Assembly (NCBI GenBank): GCA_041650415.1
Contig: JBAZLC010000001.1
Coordinates: 66,998-130,997 of the forward strand
DNA from: Minisyncoccota bacterium
GTDB taxonomy: Bacteria; Patescibacteriota; Minisyncoccia; UBA6257; UBA9933
DNA: 64,000 nt
Reading direction: 5' to 3'
Shown piece after piece: positions 3,031 to 26,520 of the stretch. Under the pieces are notes generated by a model, which was not told the origin of the DNA, did not search any database, and saw nothing but the letters and a program-made list of their open reading frames with translations. The stretch's first letter is position 1, and every line of letters begins with the position of its first letter. The position numbers and the translations under genes are program-made.

Positions 3031-4209
3031 CTAAGACCTGATAGCGCGCAAAATGCCTTCGACGTCTTTATCGAAAGAATAATTCTTTATTATTTCAAGC
3101 GATTTTTTACCGAAAGATTGCCTCTTTTTGTCGTCTTTAACCAACTGTTCAAGGCAATAAACCAAATTTTCAATTTCTCCGGTTTTATAGATAAGACCGT
3201 TTTTATTTTCAAGCACTAAATCCGAAATCGCTCCGACAGTATCTGAAGCTATTATAGGCAATCCGAAACACATTGCCTCATTAACAACAATTCCCCAACA
3301 CTCATTAAAAGAGGGTATGACAAAAATATCGGCTATTGCGTAATATTCCGGCGTCTCGGTAAGATTTTTAAATCCGGCAAAAACAACATCCTTGAGATTG
3401 CGATCTCTGGCGTATTTTTCCAGCTCGGGACGTAGATTCCCATCCCCCACGAATATCAGCGACAAACTTTTAGTTTTCGGTTTATAGTTTTTAGCTAGCG
3501 ACTCGTACGCCTTTAATAAATCCATCGGTCTTTTTCTGTTTACCAATTTACCGACAAACAAAATAACAATATTATTTTTAACTTTTTCCCTTTCGCGGAC
3601 TTTTTTACGATCAATAGATTCTGATAACTTATAAAAATAATCGTTATCCGTGGCATAGGGCATGGAAATCAATTTATTTTCGGGCACGCCGTGATATTTA
3701 TAGAACTTTTTATCTTCATTTCCCATATACAGGAAATGTCTGATTTTTTTAAAAAACACCGTAAGAATGATTTTTTTAAGCCCTCTTTTCCATAAAGGCT
3801 TAACTAATTCGCAGGCAAAACAATTATCTCCGTGCATCGCTACCGAAATTCCCAAGAGAAACGCCGTCAACACGGCTAAAATATTCGTAAAAGAATTCCA
3901 CCCATGGACAAAAAGAAGATCGTATTTGCCGTTTTTTAATTCTCTCACTATCCCGAAATTTATTAATCCCAATAAATAATTTTCCGGCCTAGGCGAATAA
4001 TTTTTTAAAAACTTATAATTATAACCGTCTAAAAGAGGAAGATCCCATTTTATATTTTTTCCGAGCTCATGGTCAAAACTTTCTTTGCCAACTCCAAAAT
4101 CCCAACAAAAATAAACCGTTAAATCAACCTGCGGCTCTTTTGCCAATTTCTGGAAAAGCGGCACTTGATATTGAATCGGATGAGAGGTTAAAATCGCTAA
4201 TTTACGCAT
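3031..4209 (-). CDS. Glycosyltransferase family 4 (GT-B fold, retaining).
   Basis: C-terminal EX7E-type motif region PSFNECWGIVVNEAMCFGLPIIASD, with typical GT4 length and architecture. Confidence 0.8.
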   Translation of the reverse strand: MRKLAILTSHPIQYQVPLFQKLAKEPQVDLTVYFCWDFGVGKESFDHELGKNIKWDLPLLDGYNYKFLKNYSPRPENYLLGLINFGIVRELKNGKYDLLFVHGWNSFTNILAVLTAFLLGISVAMHGDNCFACELVKPLWKRGLKKIILTVFFKKIRHFLYMGNEDKKFYKYHGVPENKLISMPYATDNDYFYKLSESIDRKKVREREKVKNNIVILFVGKLVNRKRPMDLLKAYESLAKNYKPKTKSLSLIFVGDGNLRPELEKYARDRNLKDVVFAGFKNLTETPEYYAIADIFVIPSFNECWGIVVNEAMCFGLPIIASDTVGAISDLVLENKNGLIYKTGEIENLVYCLEQLVKDDKKRQSFGKKSLEIIKNYSFDKDVEGILRAIRS

Positions 4210-8931: not shown

Positions 8932-9834
8932 CTAAACCGTTTCCGCGAAAGAACTTTCCTTTGCGAAATAAAAAGCGTTTTCCAGTTCATCTTTGATCGA
9001 TGACTCCAAAACAGCCAATTCAGTTTCGGAAAACAGTTTTTCCGCTAAAAGAAAATTTCTGTATTTTTTAACGGGACAATTTTCAATATCGATCTTATAA
9101 TTCGGACCGACATGATCTGCCCACCTGTTAACCGCGCACTCCACCAAAAAAGGGCCGTTCCCGCGCAAAATATTTTCTTTCGCTCCGGAAAAAGCATTAA
9201 AAACCGCCAAGACGTCTCTTCCGTCAACTTTGCGATTTTTAATAGCGAAGGCTTCGCCTTTTTTGTGGATATTGCCGAACGATTCACGAATGTTGCTTGC
9301 CGAATTCGTAGCAAGGCCGTTGTTTTCACAAACAAAAACCACGGGCAGTTTATGAATCGAAGCGAAGTTGAGGCTTTCATAAAAAACCCCTTCTTCAACG
9401 GCCCCGTCGCCGAAGAACACGACTACAATTCTGCGCGAACCGTCAAGTTTCGCGGCAAAAGCGTCGCCAACGGCAATAGGAATCGTCCCACCGACAATTG
9501 CCGACGTGCCGAAGAAACCGGCCGATTCATCTATTATGTGCATTGAACCGCCTCTGCCTCCGGTGCAACCTACCGCTTTGCCATAAAGCTCCGCAAGCAA
9601 TCGTTTCAAATTTCCTCCACATGCAAGATACGCGGCATGTCCGCGATGCGTGGCGTAAACGTGATCGCCGGCATTCAAACCGGCGCAAACACCGACCGCC
9701 GACGCCTCCTGGCCCAAAGAAAGATGGACCGGACAACGCATTTCCTGTTCGGGATAACGCCTGGCAATCTCTTTTTCCGTTTCCCTGATGAGAACGAGCT
9801 TTTTGAACATTTCCAAAAGAATATTTTCCTTCAC
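8932..9834 (-). CDS. TPP-dependent 2-oxoacid dehydrogenase E1 component, alpha subunit.
   Basis: Thiamine-PP binding region GDGAVEEGVFYESLNFASIHKLPVVFVCENNGLA and the GGRGGSMH motif. GAAGGAGG sits upstream of the GTG at 9834. Confidence 0.8.
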   Translation of the reverse strand: MKENILLEMFKKLVLIRETEKEIARRYPEQEMRCPVHLSLGQEASAVGVCAGLNAGDHVYATHRGHAAYLACGGNLKRLLAELYGKAVGCTGGRGGSMHIIDESAGFFGTSAIVGGTIPIAVGDAFAAKLDGSRRIVVVFFGDGAVEEGVFYESLNFASIHKLPVVFVCENNGLATNSASNIRESFGNIHKKGEAFAIKNRKVDGRDVLAVFNAFSGAKENILRGNGPFLVECAVNRWADHVGPNYKIDIENCPVKKYRNFLLAEKLFSETELAVLESSIKDELENAFYFAKESSFAETV

Positions 9835-21674: not shown

Positions 21675-22424
21675 TTACAGCGACCAACTGGAAGCGCCGA
21701 AAATCGCCAGAGCCAAAGCTATAAAAACCGTTATATTTCTTAGAACCAATCGCCTGTTTATGGAGCCGTTTATGTGCCCCAAAATGAAATCTTGGAAAAT
21801 TAAAATAATTAATAAAGTTAGCGCTCCGGCGTTTAAAAAATTTATCGGTAAAAAACTCAACGCCCAGACAATCTGGAAAACCAAAAATGAAACCGACCAG
21901 GCGAATAAATTATTTTTTTGCGCGCCGGGAATTTCATTTGAAATATCCAAAAATTCTTTAAAAAGATACAGAAACGCGGAAAACGCCGCCAGATATTTTA
22001 CGAAAAATAAAATACCCGATCTGTCCGACCAAAAAAATAAAGAGAAAATCGCCAATACCAAAACGCCGTTCAAAAAATGGTAAATCGGCCGGCGATTTAT
22101 GAAAATCAGGTTTTTCAGGCCCAGAAGAACGAAGAAAATCGCCGTATAAGCCAGCGAAACCGCCAAAAACCAGCCAGAGTCAAGAAACTCCCGTAAAAAG
22201 GCCGGGAAAAGCAAAATAACCAGGAATGAAGCCAAGAATTGGCGCGAATTAACCCCGGGAAAGAAGTAAAAATAGCACCCAGCCAACACGAAAGCGGCTA
22301 TATAAAACCATTCGCCCGTTGCCAGGGCAAAAAACAGCAAGATTCCCAAGCCAACGCTTTTAAGCGCTAACGGCAATATCGAGCCCCTTAGATTCCAAAA
22401 AGCCGATTTTAATTTTTTTAGCAT
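21675..22424 (-). CDS. Polytopic integral membrane protein, hypothetical.
   Basis: At least 6 hydrophobic helices. AAGGGGAGA is 9 nt upstream of the ATG at 22424. It overlaps the clpB 3' end by 65 nt. Confidence 0.5.
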
Positions 22425-25020
22425 TTTTTAAATCTCCCCTTATTATTCTGTCGGCCAATTTATCCAACACCAATTTTTGAATCAACCGCTTTATCGGCCG
22501 CGCGCCGTATTCCGGGTCGAATCCTTCCTCGGTAATGTGCTTTTTCAGCGAAGCGTCAAAAGAAATATTTATGTTTTTCTTCGACAGCCTGGCTTTCACT
22601 ATTTCCAATTGAATTTCCACAATTCTTTCTATTTCTTTCGGAGTCAAAGCGTTGAAAATTATTATTTCATCCAAGCGGTTCAAAAATTCCGGGCGGAAAG
22701 TCTCTTTCAAATCTTCTGTCACTTTTTCTTTGAAAATCTCGGCTTTTTCTACGCTTTCTTCTTTTACTTTTCCGGAAGATTCCGACATATCAAAACCCAG
22801 CCGCGAAATTTCTTTGAAATATTCGCTGCCCACGTTCGACGTCATAATAATGATTGAGTTTTTAAAATTAACCACTTTGCCTTTTCCATCGGTAAGCCGG
22901 CCGTTATCTAAAACCTGGAGCAAAACGTTAAACACCTCCGGATGAGCTTTTTCTATTTCATCAAACAGAATCAAACTGTACGGCCGATGTCGTACGGTTT
23001 CGGTCAATTGTCCTCCTTCCTCGTGACCAACGTATCCGGGCGGCGAACCGATTAAACGGCTGGTAGAATGTTTTTCCATGTATTCCGACATATCGATGCG
23101 GATAAGGGCTTTTTCGTCGTTAAACATAAACTCCGCCAAAGTCTTGGCAAGTTCGGTTTTTCCCACTCCGGTCGGCCCCAAAAACATGAAGGAACCAAGC
23201 GGCTTATCTTCGTCTGACAGCCCGGCGCGGGACCGGCGCAAAGCGCTGGCAATTGCACTAACGGCATCTTTTTGACCGACAACCCTCTCGCCCAAAACTT
23301 CTTCAATATGGGAAAGTTTTTCCATTTCCGATTCAAGCATTTTGGAAATCGGCACGCCCGTCCAACGCGAGACCACCGCCGCAATGTCTTCTTCGTCGAC
23401 AACTTCCCGGATAAACTTTTCTCCCGTGGATTGCTTCTTGTCTTTCACTAAATATTTTTTTTCAAACGCCTTGAATTCTTTTTCCGCTTGCGGAAGTTCA
23501 CCATAAAGTATCTTTGCCACTTTTTCCAAATTTCCGTCACGCTCGGCAAGCTCGGCTTCCCTTCTTAAATCCTCTACACGCTTTCGCAAATTATGAGTCT
23601 GCTCCGAAGAAATTTTTTCGGCGTGCCACTTGGCGGAAAGCTCATCATTTTTATCTTTAAGTCCGGCAAGCTCTTTGCCTATTTCTTTAAGCCTTTTCTT
23701 GCTTTTTTCCCCGTCTTCGGAAGCCAAGGCTTGTTTTTCTATTTCCAGCCTGGTTATTTCCCGGCGCATTTTCCCTATTTCCGCCGGAATGCTTTCGCTT
23801 TCAAGGCGCCTGGCCGAAGCGGCCTCGTCTATTAAATCCACCGCTTTATCCGGCAAAAATCTGTCTGTAATATAACGGCTCGAAAGATTCACCGCCGAAA
23901 CAATCGCCTCGTCGGAAATTCTGACGCCATGATGAATTTCATATTTTTCTTTTAATCCGCGCAAAATGGAAATGCTGTCTTCCACTGTCGGCTCTTCAAC
24001 CATAATCGGCTGGAACCGGCGTTCAAGCGCCGCATCTTTTTCAATATATCTTTGATATTCTCTAATTGTTGTCGCGCCGATTGCCCGGAGTTCTCCGCGC
24101 GCCAAAGCCGGCTTCAATAAATTCGAAGCATCAACCGTTCCTTCGGCGGCGCCAGCGCCCACTATCATATGAATCTCATCTATAAAAAGAATGTACCTTC
24201 CCGCGGAATTCTGAATTTCTTTCATAAAAGCTTTCAAGCGGTCCTCAAATTCGCCGCGGAATTTCGTGCCCGCTATCAAAGAACCCAAGTCAAGCATGAT
24301 TATTTCTTTATCTTTCAAGGTTTCCGGCACTTCACCCGAAACGATTCTTTGCGCCAGGCCTTCAACCACGGCGGTTTTTCCCACGCCCGGCTCACCTATC
24401 AATACCGGATTATTCTTGGTCCGGCGGCTTAAAACCTGAATCACTCTGCGAAGCTCTTCTTCTCTGCCGATAACCGGGTCAAGCTTATTCTGCTTGGCTT
24501 GCTCGTTTAAATTAACGGCGTATTTTTCCAACACCTGAAATTTCGATTCCGGAGTTTCATCGGTAATTCTCGTTGAACCGCGGAGCGCTGCCAAAACTCT
24601 CAAAACCGTTTCTTTACGAAGCCCGAATTCTTCCAAAATTTTTCCGGCCGGAGACGGACTTTCCAAAATTGCCAGAAGTAAATGCTCGCAGGAAATAAAT
24701 TCATCTTTTTGCGCCGCGGCGATTTTCGCCGATTTATCCAAAATCTGCATAAGCTCCTGTGAAAGATAAAGCTGCGCCACTCCTCCGCCCCCGGCCACAA
24801 TTTTGGCTTCGGCGGTAAACGCTTCTTCCAACCTACGGGACAAAGCGTCTAAATTAACTCCCGCTCTCATTAAAATCGGCCTGACAAGCGAGCCATCATC
24901 CATTATTAATGATGCCAAAAGATGCACGGCTTTAAACTCACCATGATTTTCCTTGGCGGCAATTTCCTGGGCGTTTTGCAGCGCTTCCTGAGCTTTAATT
25001 GTAAATTTTTGAAAATTCAT
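22360..25020 (-). CDS. clpB: ATP-dependent chaperone ClpB (two AAA+ modules plus a coiled-coil M-domain).
   Basis: N-terminal Clp_N repeats. Walker [18 protein letters not shown] and a second [15 protein letters not shown]. Long M-domain coiled coil. Probable start MNFQKF at 25020 (an alternative ATG at 25029). Confidence 0.9.
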
Positions 25021-25038
25021 CCCACACATAACTTACAC
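25019..25038. repeat. Arm 1 of a perfect 20-bp inverted repeat (ATCCCACACATAACTTACAC). It overlaps the clpB start codon.
   Basis: Exact reverse complement of 25121-25140, with an 82-bp spacer. Confidence 0.7.
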
Positions 25039-25120
25039 AATTAACGGCGTAGCCCTTGAATTATGTAATTTTAATGATTTTAAATTAACCCTACTTGACC
25101 CGCACATAAACTTTTTATCC

Positions 25121-25140
25121 GTGTAAGTTATGTGTGGGAT
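25121..25140. repeat. Arm 2 of the 20-bp inverted repeat (GTGTAAGTTATGTGTGGGAT), between the htrA stop and clpB.
   Basis: Exact reverse complement of 25019-25038. Confidence 0.7.
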
Positions 25141-25151
25141 TCATAAACTCC

Positions 25152-26432
25152 TTATATTCCTGCGGGTCTCTCTTCCAACACTACCTTAATTTCCATTTCT
25201 TTCCCGTCTCTTAATGCTTTCAACGTAATGGTATCGCCGACGCTGTATTTTTGCAACAAAGAATTTAAAGACTTATCTTGAGTTATTTTTTCTCCATTCA
25301 CTTCGGTAATAATATCCTCCGCTTTTAGGCCGGCTTTTTCAGCTGGAGAATTTTTAAGAACCGCCGGACCAGCGGAACTTCCACGAACTATCACACCGCT
25401 ATCAACCGATAATTTTTCTTTTTTCGCCAAATCGGAAGTTATAACCAAATAACGCACTCCCAAATAAGGCGAAACTATTCTGCCCGTGCTTTTAACCGAC
25501 TCTATGGATTTTTTAACCTGATTTATCGGAATGGAAAATCCGATGCTTTGCGCGCCCGAAACCATGGCAACGTTTATCCCAATAACTTCGCCTTTTAAAT
25601 TCAAAAGCGGACCGCCGGAATTACCCTCGTTTATGGCGGCGTCCGTCTGAATCAAATCTTCAAGTTTTTCCGTTCCTATGCCTCCCGAGCCCGAGGCGGT
25701 AATATTGCGCGACAACCCCGAGATAACTCCCGTTGACACGGTATTCCTGAATTCTCCCAACGCGTTTCCGATGGCGATAGCGGTTTGCCCAAGCTTCAAG
25801 CCATCCGAATCTCCCAAATTTACAACCGGCAAATCGGTAGCGGAAATTTTTATAATGGCGACATCTCTATTTGGATCTCTCGCCAAAACTTTAGCGTCGT
25901 ATTTTTTCCCGTCGTTGGTTAAAACCGTATATGAAGCCGCCTCGTCATAAACAACATGCTTATTCGTCACAATTAAACCGTCCGAAGAAACAATGAACCC
26001 CGAGCCGCCGCCGATTTCCTGAAGAGATGTACCTTTTTGGCATTGCTGATAAAATTGCACATTTTGGTCGCCAAAAAGCTGTTGAACTTCCGGCGGCATA
26101 TTGGCGAAGGGATTATAAGGACACTGCTCGATTACCGGCAAATTTTTAGAAATAGTGATTGAAATAACCGCCGGCGAAGTTTGTTCTATCGCTTTAACCA
26201 CGGCAGCCTCGTAATCAACCGTTGGCGAATAAATTTGCGTTTGAGTTTGCGCTGTCGGCGCCGTTGAACCGGAAAATGGAACTGCAAACGGCTTTATATA
26301 TTGATTATATAAATCTCCGAAAAAACTTGCTTTGACTGGCTGACTGAAAACAAGCGAACCGAAAATACCGCCGACCAAAGCGACGAAAACAAGAGAAATG
26401 ATAAATTTTTTATTATTCATTTTATTTAACAT
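25152..26432 (-). CDS. htrA: HtrA/DegP-family periplasmic serine protease with a PDZ domain.
   Basis: Trypsin-like catalytic region ...GNSGGPLLNLKGEVIGIN... and a C-terminal PDZ domain. N-terminal signal/anchor sequence. Alternative leaderless start MNNKKF at 26420. Confidence 0.85.
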   Translation of the reverse strand: MLNKMNNKKFIISLVFVALVGGIFGSLVFSQPVKASFFGDLYNQYIKPFAVPFSGSTAPTAQTQTQIYSPTVDYEAAVVKAIEQTSPAVISITISKNLPVIEQCPYNPFANMPPEVQQLFGDQNVQFYQQCQKGTSLQEIGGGSGFIVSSDGLIVTNKHVVYDEAASYTVLTNDGKKYDAKVLARDPNRDVAIIKISATDLPVVNLGDSDGLKLGQTAIAIGNALGEFRNTVSTGVISGLSRNITASGSGGIGTEKLEDLIQTDAAINEGNSGGPLLNLKGEVIGINVAMVSGAQSIGFSIPINQVKKSIESVKSTGRIVSPYLGVRYLVITSDLAKKEKLSVDSGVIVRGSSAGPAVLKNSPAEKAGLKAEDIITEVNGEKITQDKSLNSLLQKYSVGDTITLKALRDGKEMEIKVVLEERPAGI

Positions 26433-26478: not shown

Positions 26479-26520
26479 TATAACAAACTATTGACGATCG
26501 TCAATGGTTTGTTATGCCTC
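26479..26520 (-). repeat. REP-like palindromic element / terminator, copy A, downstream of the 2-hydroxyacid dehydrogenase gene.
   Basis: On the minus strand: GAGGCATAACAAACCATTGACGATCGTCAATAGTTTGTTATA. It has a perfect TTGACGATCGTCAA core and shares about 90% identity with 37693-37736. Confidence 0.6.

Follow-up and report, generated by a model that had tools for sequence, protein, structure and literature searches.

A perfect 20-nt inverted repeat at the junction of htrA and clpB was analysed in a 64,000-nt stretch of the genome of a Minisyncoccota bacterium (contig JBAZLC010000001.1, positions 66,998 to 130,997; the whole stretch is referred to here as the window). The two arms are very probably the terminal inverted repeats (TIRs) of a small mobile element of Patescibacteria, present here as an internally deleted, 119-bp copy that resembles a miniature inverted-repeat transposable element (MITE). 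The 20-mer ATCCCACACATAACTTACAC lies at 25019-25038 and its exact reverse complement at 25121-25140, with a spacing of 82 nt. The preliminary description of this region had reported the 20/20 match and its spacing, and both were confirmed by a direct check of the sequence. It had also regarded the match as beyond chance, which is agreed here, as none of 100 dinucleotide-preserving shuffles of the window contained any 20-mer match. Even with up to three mismatches allowed, the window contains just these two arms. An assembly artefact, considered in the preliminary description, is contradicted by assemblies made independently from other samples (L015, L016, L017, and L021), in which this junction bears these arms too.

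Both genes are on the minus strand, on which the junction reads TAA-GGAG-TTT-ATGAA-T(CCCACAC...GTGTGGG)-ATGAA-TTTCAA or, with the arms in full, ATA TAA GGAG TTT ATGAA T CCCACACATAACTTACAC (82 nt) GTGTAAGTTATGTGTGGG ATGAA TTT CAA. One arm had been described as containing the clpB start region and the other as abutting the htrA stop. Of the real clpB start codon (25020-25018) the right arm does hold the A and T, and an in-frame ATG lies upstream of it within the same arm (25029-25027), but the distal arm is separated from the htrA stop by 11 nt (GGAGTTTATGA). Because the ATGAA that contains the start codon is duplicated on both sides, the clpB open reading frame (ORF) is intact, its ATG abutting the right arm. 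When the segment and one ATGAA are removed in silico, TAA-GGAG-TTT-ATG-AAT-TTT-CAA is obtained, which is a normal tight operon junction; the GGAG was presumably the ribosome-binding site of clpB before the insertion. Judged on sequence, the inverted repeat with its flanking ATGAA marks an inverted-repeat element that has duplicated its target site.

Copies were identified by exact matches to the 18-nt core of the arm, pairing of arms at no more than 4 mismatches, and removal of duplicates, giving 36 non-redundant elements. In a species-representative genome collection the core is present at 14 loci, 11 of them in Patescibacteria and mostly as inverted pairs, spanning several lineages (records labelled Saccharibacteria, Sungiibacteriota, and unclassified Patescibacteria); by our estimate, the three single matches in Bacteroidota are within chance expectation for a collection of this size. 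A further search of metagenomes returned 29 contigs, and a search of viral contigs gave no match. Unpaired arms resolve as copies containing indels or as truncations at contig ends. The elements are 58-452 bp long, with size classes near 118 bp and 293 bp, and 17 out of 36 are short copies with no ORF. Genomes can carry several copies, as on three contigs of the metagenome-assembled genome (MAG) KR13_N2.mb.37 and at L011, L031, L045, and L046, where there are two copies per locus. No larger element and no conventional transposase was found between the same arms, all pairs spanning 452 bp or less.

When oriented by the adjoining ORF, the right arm is directly followed by ATG in 33 of the 36 elements, and in 30 the host ORF has 100 aa or more, or continues to the contig end. 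More than 20 different host genes are represented, among them those for a nucleotidyl transferase, tryptophanyl- and cysteinyl-tRNA synthetases, a dTDP-glucose-dehydratase-type enzyme, a MazG-like protein, polynucleotide phosphorylase (PNPase), an RNase T-type exonuclease, ribosomal protein L9, sigma-70, FKBP, and sugar-nucleotide enzymes. Judging from these hosts, the repeat is not tied to clpB or to heat shock. The left flank is ATGAA followed by T (T in 34/36). Left and right hexamers agree at positions 1-5 (26-31 out of 36) and at position 6 in just 8 out of 36, therefore the duplication is best read as 5 bp, with the T as part of the element. The left and right 5-mers are identical in 19 elements and match at four or more of the five positions in 25. 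Ten copies have a right 5-mer other than ATGAA, four of which share the same unusual 5-mer on the left (GTCAA, ATGGA twice, and ATGAG); such co-variation shows that the 5-mer is duplicated target and does not travel with the element.

Three copies have additional features. At L053 (2756 onward), the element is directly before a gyrA gene that also holds an intein, two kinds of selfish insertion in one gene. The longest copy, of 452 bp (L006, 1004-1455), contains a nested, different long inverted repeat (...GGTCTGTTGCCGAATAGC... and ...GCTATTCGGCAACAGACC...) together with a nuclease remnant (KDDAYKREQSLKL), and looks like an element inserted into an element. At L027 (~9330-9359), the outer halves of the arms alone form a collapsed hairpin, ATCCCACACATAAC-TT-GTTATGTGTGGGAT, directly after a terminator-like GC-rich stem-loop with a T-run; this resembles the self-folding hairpin repeats of the Ssn nucleases discussed below.

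Each of the 14 long copies (287-299 bp) has one ORF, which is co-directional with the host gene in 14/14 and intact in 12/14. In 12 out of 14, this ORF terminates within the right arm, its TAA lying exactly 15 nt from the end of the element (GTG TAA GTT ATG TGT GGG, followed by the host ATG). The product is 85 aa, with a GIY-YIG domain (PF01541) over residues 1-68 (E-values of 3e-17 to 7e-16, above the curated cut-off). The nearest solved relatives in a PDB search are weak matches, SLX1 (7e-5) and BH0048/UPF0213 (1e-4), and the protein is predicted to be a single-domain GIY-YIG nuclease of the SLX1/UPF0213-like branch; it reaches 20.3 bits against TIGR01453, the intron-type GIY-YIG endonucleases, where the cut-off is 56 bits. 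Relatives of 85 aa form more than 100 clusters, and every source name that bears a taxon is a Patescibacteria lineage, except one labelled 'bacterium'. Between copies the median pS is 0.77, with synonymous sites near saturation, and the median dN/dS is 0.12, which indicates purifying selection on the nuclease. The invariant residues are VY, Y-G-T, R, HN, and E, plus a basic C-terminal AQGLRR-K-R. In most long copies, a mini-ORF that opens at the duplicated host ATG ends at a TGA just past the left arm, with 2 nt between this stop and the ATG of the nuclease (TGATTATG); in L012 and L038 the mini-ORF instead runs in frame into the nuclease, and an equivalent that stops directly after the left arm is present in 15 of the 36 family members.

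The outer 12 nt of the arms (CCCACACATAAC) are almost invariant over the 36 copies, with variation mainly in the inner 6 nt, and both arms are at consensus in 21. More divergent copies have changed in both arms. L052 and L055 have compensatory changes (CCCCCAC.../...GTGGGGG), the nuclease of L052 being 69 % identical. L051 (2467-2767), with a nuclease that is 61 % identical, has the arms ACCCAGCACTTACG.../...CGTAAGTGCTGGGT, retains the TAA in the right arm, and has a TTGA duplication. Such co-variation of arms and nuclease would be expected if the nuclease recognises the arms. The L051 copy is inserted in the 3′ end of ligA, the last codons of which are replaced by arm-encoded residues, and start codons are therefore the usual location of the element, not the sole one.

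The 82-nt interior of the window copy retains traces of this nuclease gene. In local alignments against the full-length interiors, two blocks matched. One is 17/17 to AATCATTAAAATTACAT of L008 (QSLKLH codons), a match reached by none of 500 shuffles, and the other is 16/18 to AAAAGTTTATGTGCGGGT (KSLYVG codons), reached by one of 500. The second covers a partial third copy of the arm in the spacer (25099-25109), which was later recognised as a nuclease coding remnant. Global alignment with cheap gaps was uninformative as a test of homology, a shuffled interior scoring equally, and was replaced by local alignment against shuffles. The window copy aligns without large gaps to 118-bp copies (L010, L044, L031, and L021); since these near-identical copies precede unrelated genes, the short form has itself spread.

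The same junction was compared in relatives. Where ClpB is 93 % identical to that of the window (L015, L016, and L017), the element is 94 bp, and at 90 % (L021) it is 118 bp, in each case with ATGAAT on both sides. At 79 % identity (L055) it is full-length and intact, with the variant arms CCCCCAC.../...GTGGGGG; here the htrA stop and the left ATGAA overlap, which implies that stop and start originally shared an ATGA. Other relatives have different sequence at this position: an unrelated AT-rich 102-bp sequence in L018 (3899-4000) and L019 (ClpB 95 %), a different inverted-repeat element (CCCGTTAGAAGTC..., 3540-3669) flanked by ATGAAC and GTGAAT in L020 (92 %), another inverted-repeat sequence of 93 bp with a TCCTACTAATGTAC-type repeat in L054 (2408-2500; 80 %), and another 84-bp sequence in L056 (79 %). 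Thus some of the sequences that fill the junction in element-free relatives carry inverted repeats of their own. The element is variably present and variable in size among relatives, and the junction is therefore a recurrent insertion site. Between the window, L015, and L021, clpB four-fold sites differ by 38-45 % and element interiors by 14-31 %, while the arms differ at 0/36 positions, which suggests that the interiors are younger or more constrained than neutral sites and that the arms are far more constrained than the interiors.

The CCCGTTAGAAGTC-type arms are also present at another site in L015 (6630-6758) with a TTGAC duplication. This arm family, with its 5-bp duplication, was met as ORF-less copies only, and small elements with CCC...GGG ends and 5-bp duplications seem to fall into several families.

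The copy at clpB has TIRs, a target duplication, small size with no intact coding sequence, a longer coding relative, and presence/absence polymorphism. It thus appears to pass every sequence test for a MITE that the window allows; multiple dispersed copies within a genome were seen in relatives, and the 64 kb read here hold one copy. Of the options offered in the preliminary description, an invertible or excisable segment came closest, in that the arms are those of a mobile element with a target duplication; the notion of an invertible switch does not stand, the interior being co-directional with the host gene in 14/14 long copies.

The closest counterpart is the Ssn family, single-domain GIY-YIG nucleases specific for sites in single-stranded DNA, which are flanked by NTS/SRM hairpin repeats (Chenal et al., 2025; PMC11893778). 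According to that report, these nucleases bind the hairpin repeat in single-stranded DNA and cut beside it, and the authors noted that the repeat-gene-repeat layout is like that of an insertion sequence, with mobility hypothesised only. The likenesses are a very small single-domain GIY-YIG protein (85 aa here, in full-length relatives, the window copy having lost the gene), a gene bracketed 5′ and 3′ by its cognate repeat (14/14 long copies here), gene-less repeats dispersed in the genome, and a repeat and nuclease that appear to co-evolve. There are also differences. The Ssn repeat is described as a self-contained 20-50-nt hairpin matching SRM, whereas here each arm is half of a long-range inverted repeat and is not self-complementary, and no SRM, NTS, or dRS3 motif was matched in the 36 elements and their flanks. 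The 5-bp target duplication, exact start-codon placement, fixed orientation, and nuclease stop within the repeat go unmentioned in the available text of PMC11893778, from which the word Patescibacteria, the hosts here, is likewise absent. Membership of the Ssn family is defined there by CDD cd10448 or a blastp E-value below 1e-10 to SsnA of N. meningitidis; the nearest solved relatives of the present nuclease are SLX1 and UPF0213. By analogy, the working of the family would most resemble that of an Ssn-type cassette of nuclease and repeats joined to a classical MITE.

No gene other than the nuclease was met between these arms. Because it is the sole gene, is under selection, and co-varies with the arms, and by analogy with Ssn and with SLX1, which cuts branched DNA, it is proposed that the nuclease drives mobility, a mechanism that as a whole is rated somewhere between doubtful and evenly balanced. 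The nuclease would recognise the invariant outer 12 nt of the arms, possibly as a folded arm-pair hairpin in single-stranded DNA, and would cut at the stem base or element boundaries and at NTGAA-like targets, with host repair or ligation completing the insertion; short copies such as that in the window would be mobilised in trans. In its strongest form, the ~290-bp version would be autonomous, with the 85-residue GIY-YIG nuclease as its transposase, recognition of the ends as single-stranded DNA hairpins, insertion at NTGAA start codons, and two stop-restart couplings. All of this together is rather unlikely, yet if the nuclease is the transposase, the element would represent a catalytic class new to prokaryotic transposons and would be the smallest of the known autonomous ones.

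The two couplings concern translation. The geometry of the long copies suggests, tentatively and with the balance slightly against it, that ribosomes are relayed through the element by termination and re-initiation. Ribosomes loaded at the host site would translate the mini-ORF and restart at the nuclease ATG 2 nt past its stop, then end at the TAA in the right arm and restart at the in-frame ATG 3 nt on or at the host ATG 12 nt on. This relay would express the nuclease and restore host translation, and would explain why the element is tolerated by essential genes. No Shine-Dalgarno-like motif is present in the right arm in any of the 36 copies. In the window, the mini-ORF has 9 codons, opens at the displaced start, and crosses the entire left arm; ~85-95 nt lie between its stop and the two candidate ATGs, therefore direct stop/restart coupling has been lost from this copy. 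Translation of clpB probably needs translation of the mini-ORF from the GGAG site to melt the 20-bp stem that the arms would form in the mRNA; alternatively, the stem may be cleaved, for example by RNase III.

A number of observations weigh against the interpretation as a mobile element and against its proposed workings. The window, which represents 64 kb of this genome, holds this single copy and neither a GIY-YIG gene nor other arm families. The predicted empty site, TAAGGAGTTTATGAATTTT, in which the Shine-Dalgarno motif is directly followed by ATGAATTT, is absent in close relatives, where there are other sequences of 84-144 bp instead, and no transposition event or excision product was observed in the sequences compared. 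At clpB itself the length of the duplication is ambiguous, ATGAAT before the element and ATGAA after it being also compatible with 2, 4, or 6 bp. The exact 18-mer search conserves one arm per copy by construction, leaving the partner arm free. Only 7/36 copies have a Shine-Dalgarno-like 4-mer before the left duplicate, which weakens the case for a systematic hijack of host ribosome-binding sites. Finally, GIY-YIG enzymes are hydrolytic and, to our knowledge, none is capable of strand transfer; a second activity would be needed, and this is the weakest step of the mechanism.

That weakness is an argument for the most credible of the alternatives, which is nonetheless unlikely: that the arms are MITE ends moved by an unrelated, conventional transposase (DDE, for example) encoded elsewhere, and that the GIY-YIG gene is a passenger or accessory, perhaps Ssn-like. 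A 5-bp duplication with CC-type termini is also a feature of DDE families such as IS1380 and Tn3. The frequency of short copies with no ORF and the exclusively ORF-less CCCGTTAGAAGTC arm family are in keeping with this explanation. Against it, no larger element with these arms was found, and the ORF fills the interior, has its stop in the arm, is always co-directional with the host gene, and is under purifying selection. The arms also change as the nuclease diverges, which points to the nuclease rather than to a transposase elsewhere.

It is improbable that this is instead a domesticated host system, in which the arms would be sites for an Ssn-like single-stranded DNA nuclease modulating DNA uptake or recombination near particular genes, as proposed for NTS and SsnA in Neisseria. 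Small GIY-YIG nucleases with dispersed cognate repeats do provide a precedent (PMC11893778). However, the exact start-codon placement with a target duplication, the presence/absence and size polymorphism at orthologous sites, and the many decayed copies point to selfish insertion and decay, and the published SRM motif is absent from 36/36 copies.

The preliminary description had proposed that the repeat forms an mRNA stem that hides the clpB start, acting as a thermosensor or through processing-dependent control. Such a stem, 20 bp long and with the clpB AUG inside it, is indeed predicted provided that htrA and clpB share a transcript. The minimum free energy fold pairs the arms and buries the AUG (-44.7 kcal/mol, z = -4.4), with a duplex energy of -32.5 kcal/mol. 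Co-transcription is plausible, since a consensus scan found no promoter-like or terminator-like site between htrA and clpB. Nothing thus points to a clpB promoter between the arms, as had been suggested; the best promoter-like site is at ~26504, upstream of htrA. In the spacer, TTAATTTAAAATCATTAAAATTACATAAT was considered as a promoter, however it is not called by the scan and is a remnant of the nuclease coding sequence. The arms are also perfectly kept at the clpB site in three lineages. The part of the proposal that fails is temperature sensing. The predicted mean arm-pair probability is 0.981 at 30 °C, 0.98 at 37 °C, 0.978 at 42 °C, and still 0.918 at 80 °C, so that the stem, predicted to be stable from 20 to 80 °C, is too stable for a thermometer and does not melt between 30 and 42 °C. 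Many unrelated genes, non-stress genes among them, are preceded by this stem too, and close relatives (ClpB 95 % and 92 % identical) have unrelated sequence at this position. Nor does the region belong to an Rfam family, the sole match, a plant microRNA hairpin at 24.3 bits (threshold 90), being attributed to chance. A clpB-specific thermosensor or processing-dependent control of the chaperone is accordingly very improbable. The folding predictions suggest that the start-hiding stem is a generic property of the element and a by-product of insertion, with a side effect on clpB expression likely.

Paired operator half-sites for a stress repressor that loops the promoter, also proposed in the preliminary description, can be set aside as extremely improbable: identical inverted 20-mers ~100 bp apart beside two stress genes would suit such a role, yet there is no other copy in the 64 kb, the 18-mer core elsewhere precedes genes for tRNA synthetases, sigma-70, L9, and PNPase rather than a chaperone regulon, across several Patescibacteria lineages the arms enclose a nuclease gene, or what remains of one, in front of housekeeping genes unrelated to one another, and the spacer is a decayed nuclease gene with no consensus promoter. 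Recurrence before the chaperone or protease genes of one regulon, the behaviour of heat-shock operators of the CIRCE, HAIR, or CtsR box type, was not found. A better operator candidate for the htrA-clpB operon than the 20-mer is a 36-bp near-perfect palindrome, ATAACAAACTATTGACGATCGTCAATGGTTTGTTAT, at 26480-26515. Just as improbable is an invertible switch in which the 82-bp segment flips: perfect inverted repeats are a substrate for invertases, yet besides the fixed direction of the long copies, the window-related short copies share one orientation, three independent assemblies of the junction agree, no recombinase is present among the flanking genes checked (htrA, clpB, a 2-hydroxyacid dehydrogenase, and one ORF with no confident domain), and the interior has no promoter-like site.

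The palindrome overlaps the best promoter-like site upstream of htrA (TTGACG-16-TATATT). Upstream of htrA it is also conserved in L018, and further copies lie in L037 (two), L043, and L045; the genes beside these further copies are not obviously those of chaperones, and one is Fmt-like.

The features of the junction are collected in the table.

Features of the htrA-clpB junction in the window, in the direction of transcription
Feature	Position	Strand	Evidence or remark
htrA, trypsin-like serine protease with PDZ domain	25152..26432	-	Stop TAA at 25154-25152; Pfam Trypsin_2 8.6e-36, PDZ_2 6e-15
GGAG, Shine-Dalgarno-like motif	25148..25151	-	Sequence; 3 nt before the left duplicate ATG
Left copy of the target-site duplication, ATGAA (displaced original clpB start)	25140..25144	-	Sequence and family-wide left/right agreement
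Putative mini-ORF, ATG AAT CCC ACA CAT AAC TTA CAC GGA TAA (MNPTHNLHG-stop)	25115..25144	-	Sequence
Element proper, 119 bp (T + 118 bp), probable non-autonomous MITE-like derivative	25021..25139	-	Arms as bounds; near-identical 118-bp copies elsewhere
Left (5′) TIR ATCCCACACATAACTTACAC; 18-nt core at 25121-25138	25121..25140	-	20/20 repeat
Nuclease-gene remnant AAAAGTTTATGTGCGGGT, codons K-S-L-Y-V-G ('YIG' motif)	25098..25115	-	16/18 match to full-length elements
Nuclease-gene remnant AATCATTAAAATTACAT, codons Q-S-L-K-L-H	25063..25079	-	17/17 exact match to the L008 full-length element
Right (3′) TIR GTGTAAGTTATGTGTGGGAT; 18-nt core at 25021-25038; in-frame ATG at 25029-25027	25019..25038	-	20/20 repeat; full-length copies carry the nuclease stop here (GTG TAA)
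Right copy of the target-site duplication, ATGAA, with the working clpB start at 25020-25018	25016..25020	-	ClpB relatives start MNFQ/MNYQ
clpB, 886 aa from MNFQKF	22360..25020	-	Pfam Clp_N, AAA, AAA_lid_9, AAA_2, ClpB_D2-small

An NCBI protein from a Candidatus Paceibacterota MAG matches the ClpB of the window at 100 %. Automatic gene callers place the ClpB start at the ATG of the right arm (25027-25029), which gives a spurious MCG- or MWG- N-terminal extension (P0002, P0004, and P0023); this extension is a quick marker of the element in protein databases. On the 3′ side of clpB, an ORF of ~249 aa with no confident domain (21675-22424) overlaps the end of the gene by 65 nt (22360-22424), compared with a called overlap of 17 to ~47 nt in relatives. 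The start-codon assignment is probably at issue.

Among other known systems, the Correia repeat-enclosed elements found in Neisseria differ in their 26-bp repeats and TA duplication, and we know of no autonomous partner for them and of no confinement to start codons, whereas here there is an apparently autonomous ~290-bp partner and the insertion point is the start codon. The likenesses are a length of ~100-150 bp, perfect TIRs, a target duplication, and location beside genes with which they are co-transcribed. Their RNA hairpins are described as bound or cut by RNase III, altering the expression of neighbouring genes (PMC2649163). Correia elements are the best model for the effect that the window copy may have on clpB mRNA.

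GIY-YIG homing endonucleases, such as I-TevI and the Seg proteins of T4, are alike in being selfish nuclease genes between or within host genes that use host expression signals. In homing enzymes a long C-terminal domain binds DNA, and repair spreads their genes to a single cognate allele, with neither inverted repeats nor duplications. The protein here has 85 aa and no extra domain, falls well below the TIGR01453 cut-off, and is found at more than 20 different host genes; identity as a homing endonuclease is ruled out by the lack of a DNA-binding domain and the many target genes. Rickettsia palindromic elements and the T4 gene 60 and mobA bypass cassettes are selfish insertions in or at the edge of coding regions that preserve host translation, through in-frame protein insertion or ribosomal bypassing; here, in contrast, the start codon is duplicated and stop/start coupling is proposed. 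The IS200/IS605 elements and their REP/PATE-type derivatives use hairpins in single-stranded DNA, have a short specific target, and give rise to short palindromic derivatives. They are similar as minimal elements next to a short specific target, and differ in having an HUH (Y1) transposase, subterminal hairpins instead of TIRs, and no target duplication. These elements are also discussed in PMC11893778. In the rRNA genes of the candidate phyla radiation, GIY-YIG ORFs lie in non-intron insertions that are not homing-like (PMC11270868), and these insertions may belong to the same family as the element described here. A literature search that covered subscription journals thinly found no account of a GIY-YIG element that combines inverted-repeat ends with target duplication and placement at start codons. 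The family is apparently undescribed, a variant of the recently described nuclease-plus-repeat kind.

For the clpB region, these results remove a false lead, as the repeat is not a new heat-shock operator or RNA thermometer. They expose a family of extremely small elements that sit exactly on start codons, including those of essential genes (tRNA synthetases, sigma-70, and L9), in bacteria with very small genomes. In practical terms, the elements create spurious N-terminal extensions, and their arms may confuse the prediction of operons and regulatory motifs in these genomes. Start-codon placement, together with the stop/start geometry, makes the family a testable case of a nearly harmless selfish insertion. 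Should the 85-residue nuclease turn out to mobilise the element, the family would be of great interest. In that case it would provide comparative evidence for the mobility of a GIY-YIG-plus-repeat cassette, which was raised for Ssn but not shown, and would add a new class of enzyme to prokaryotic transposition.

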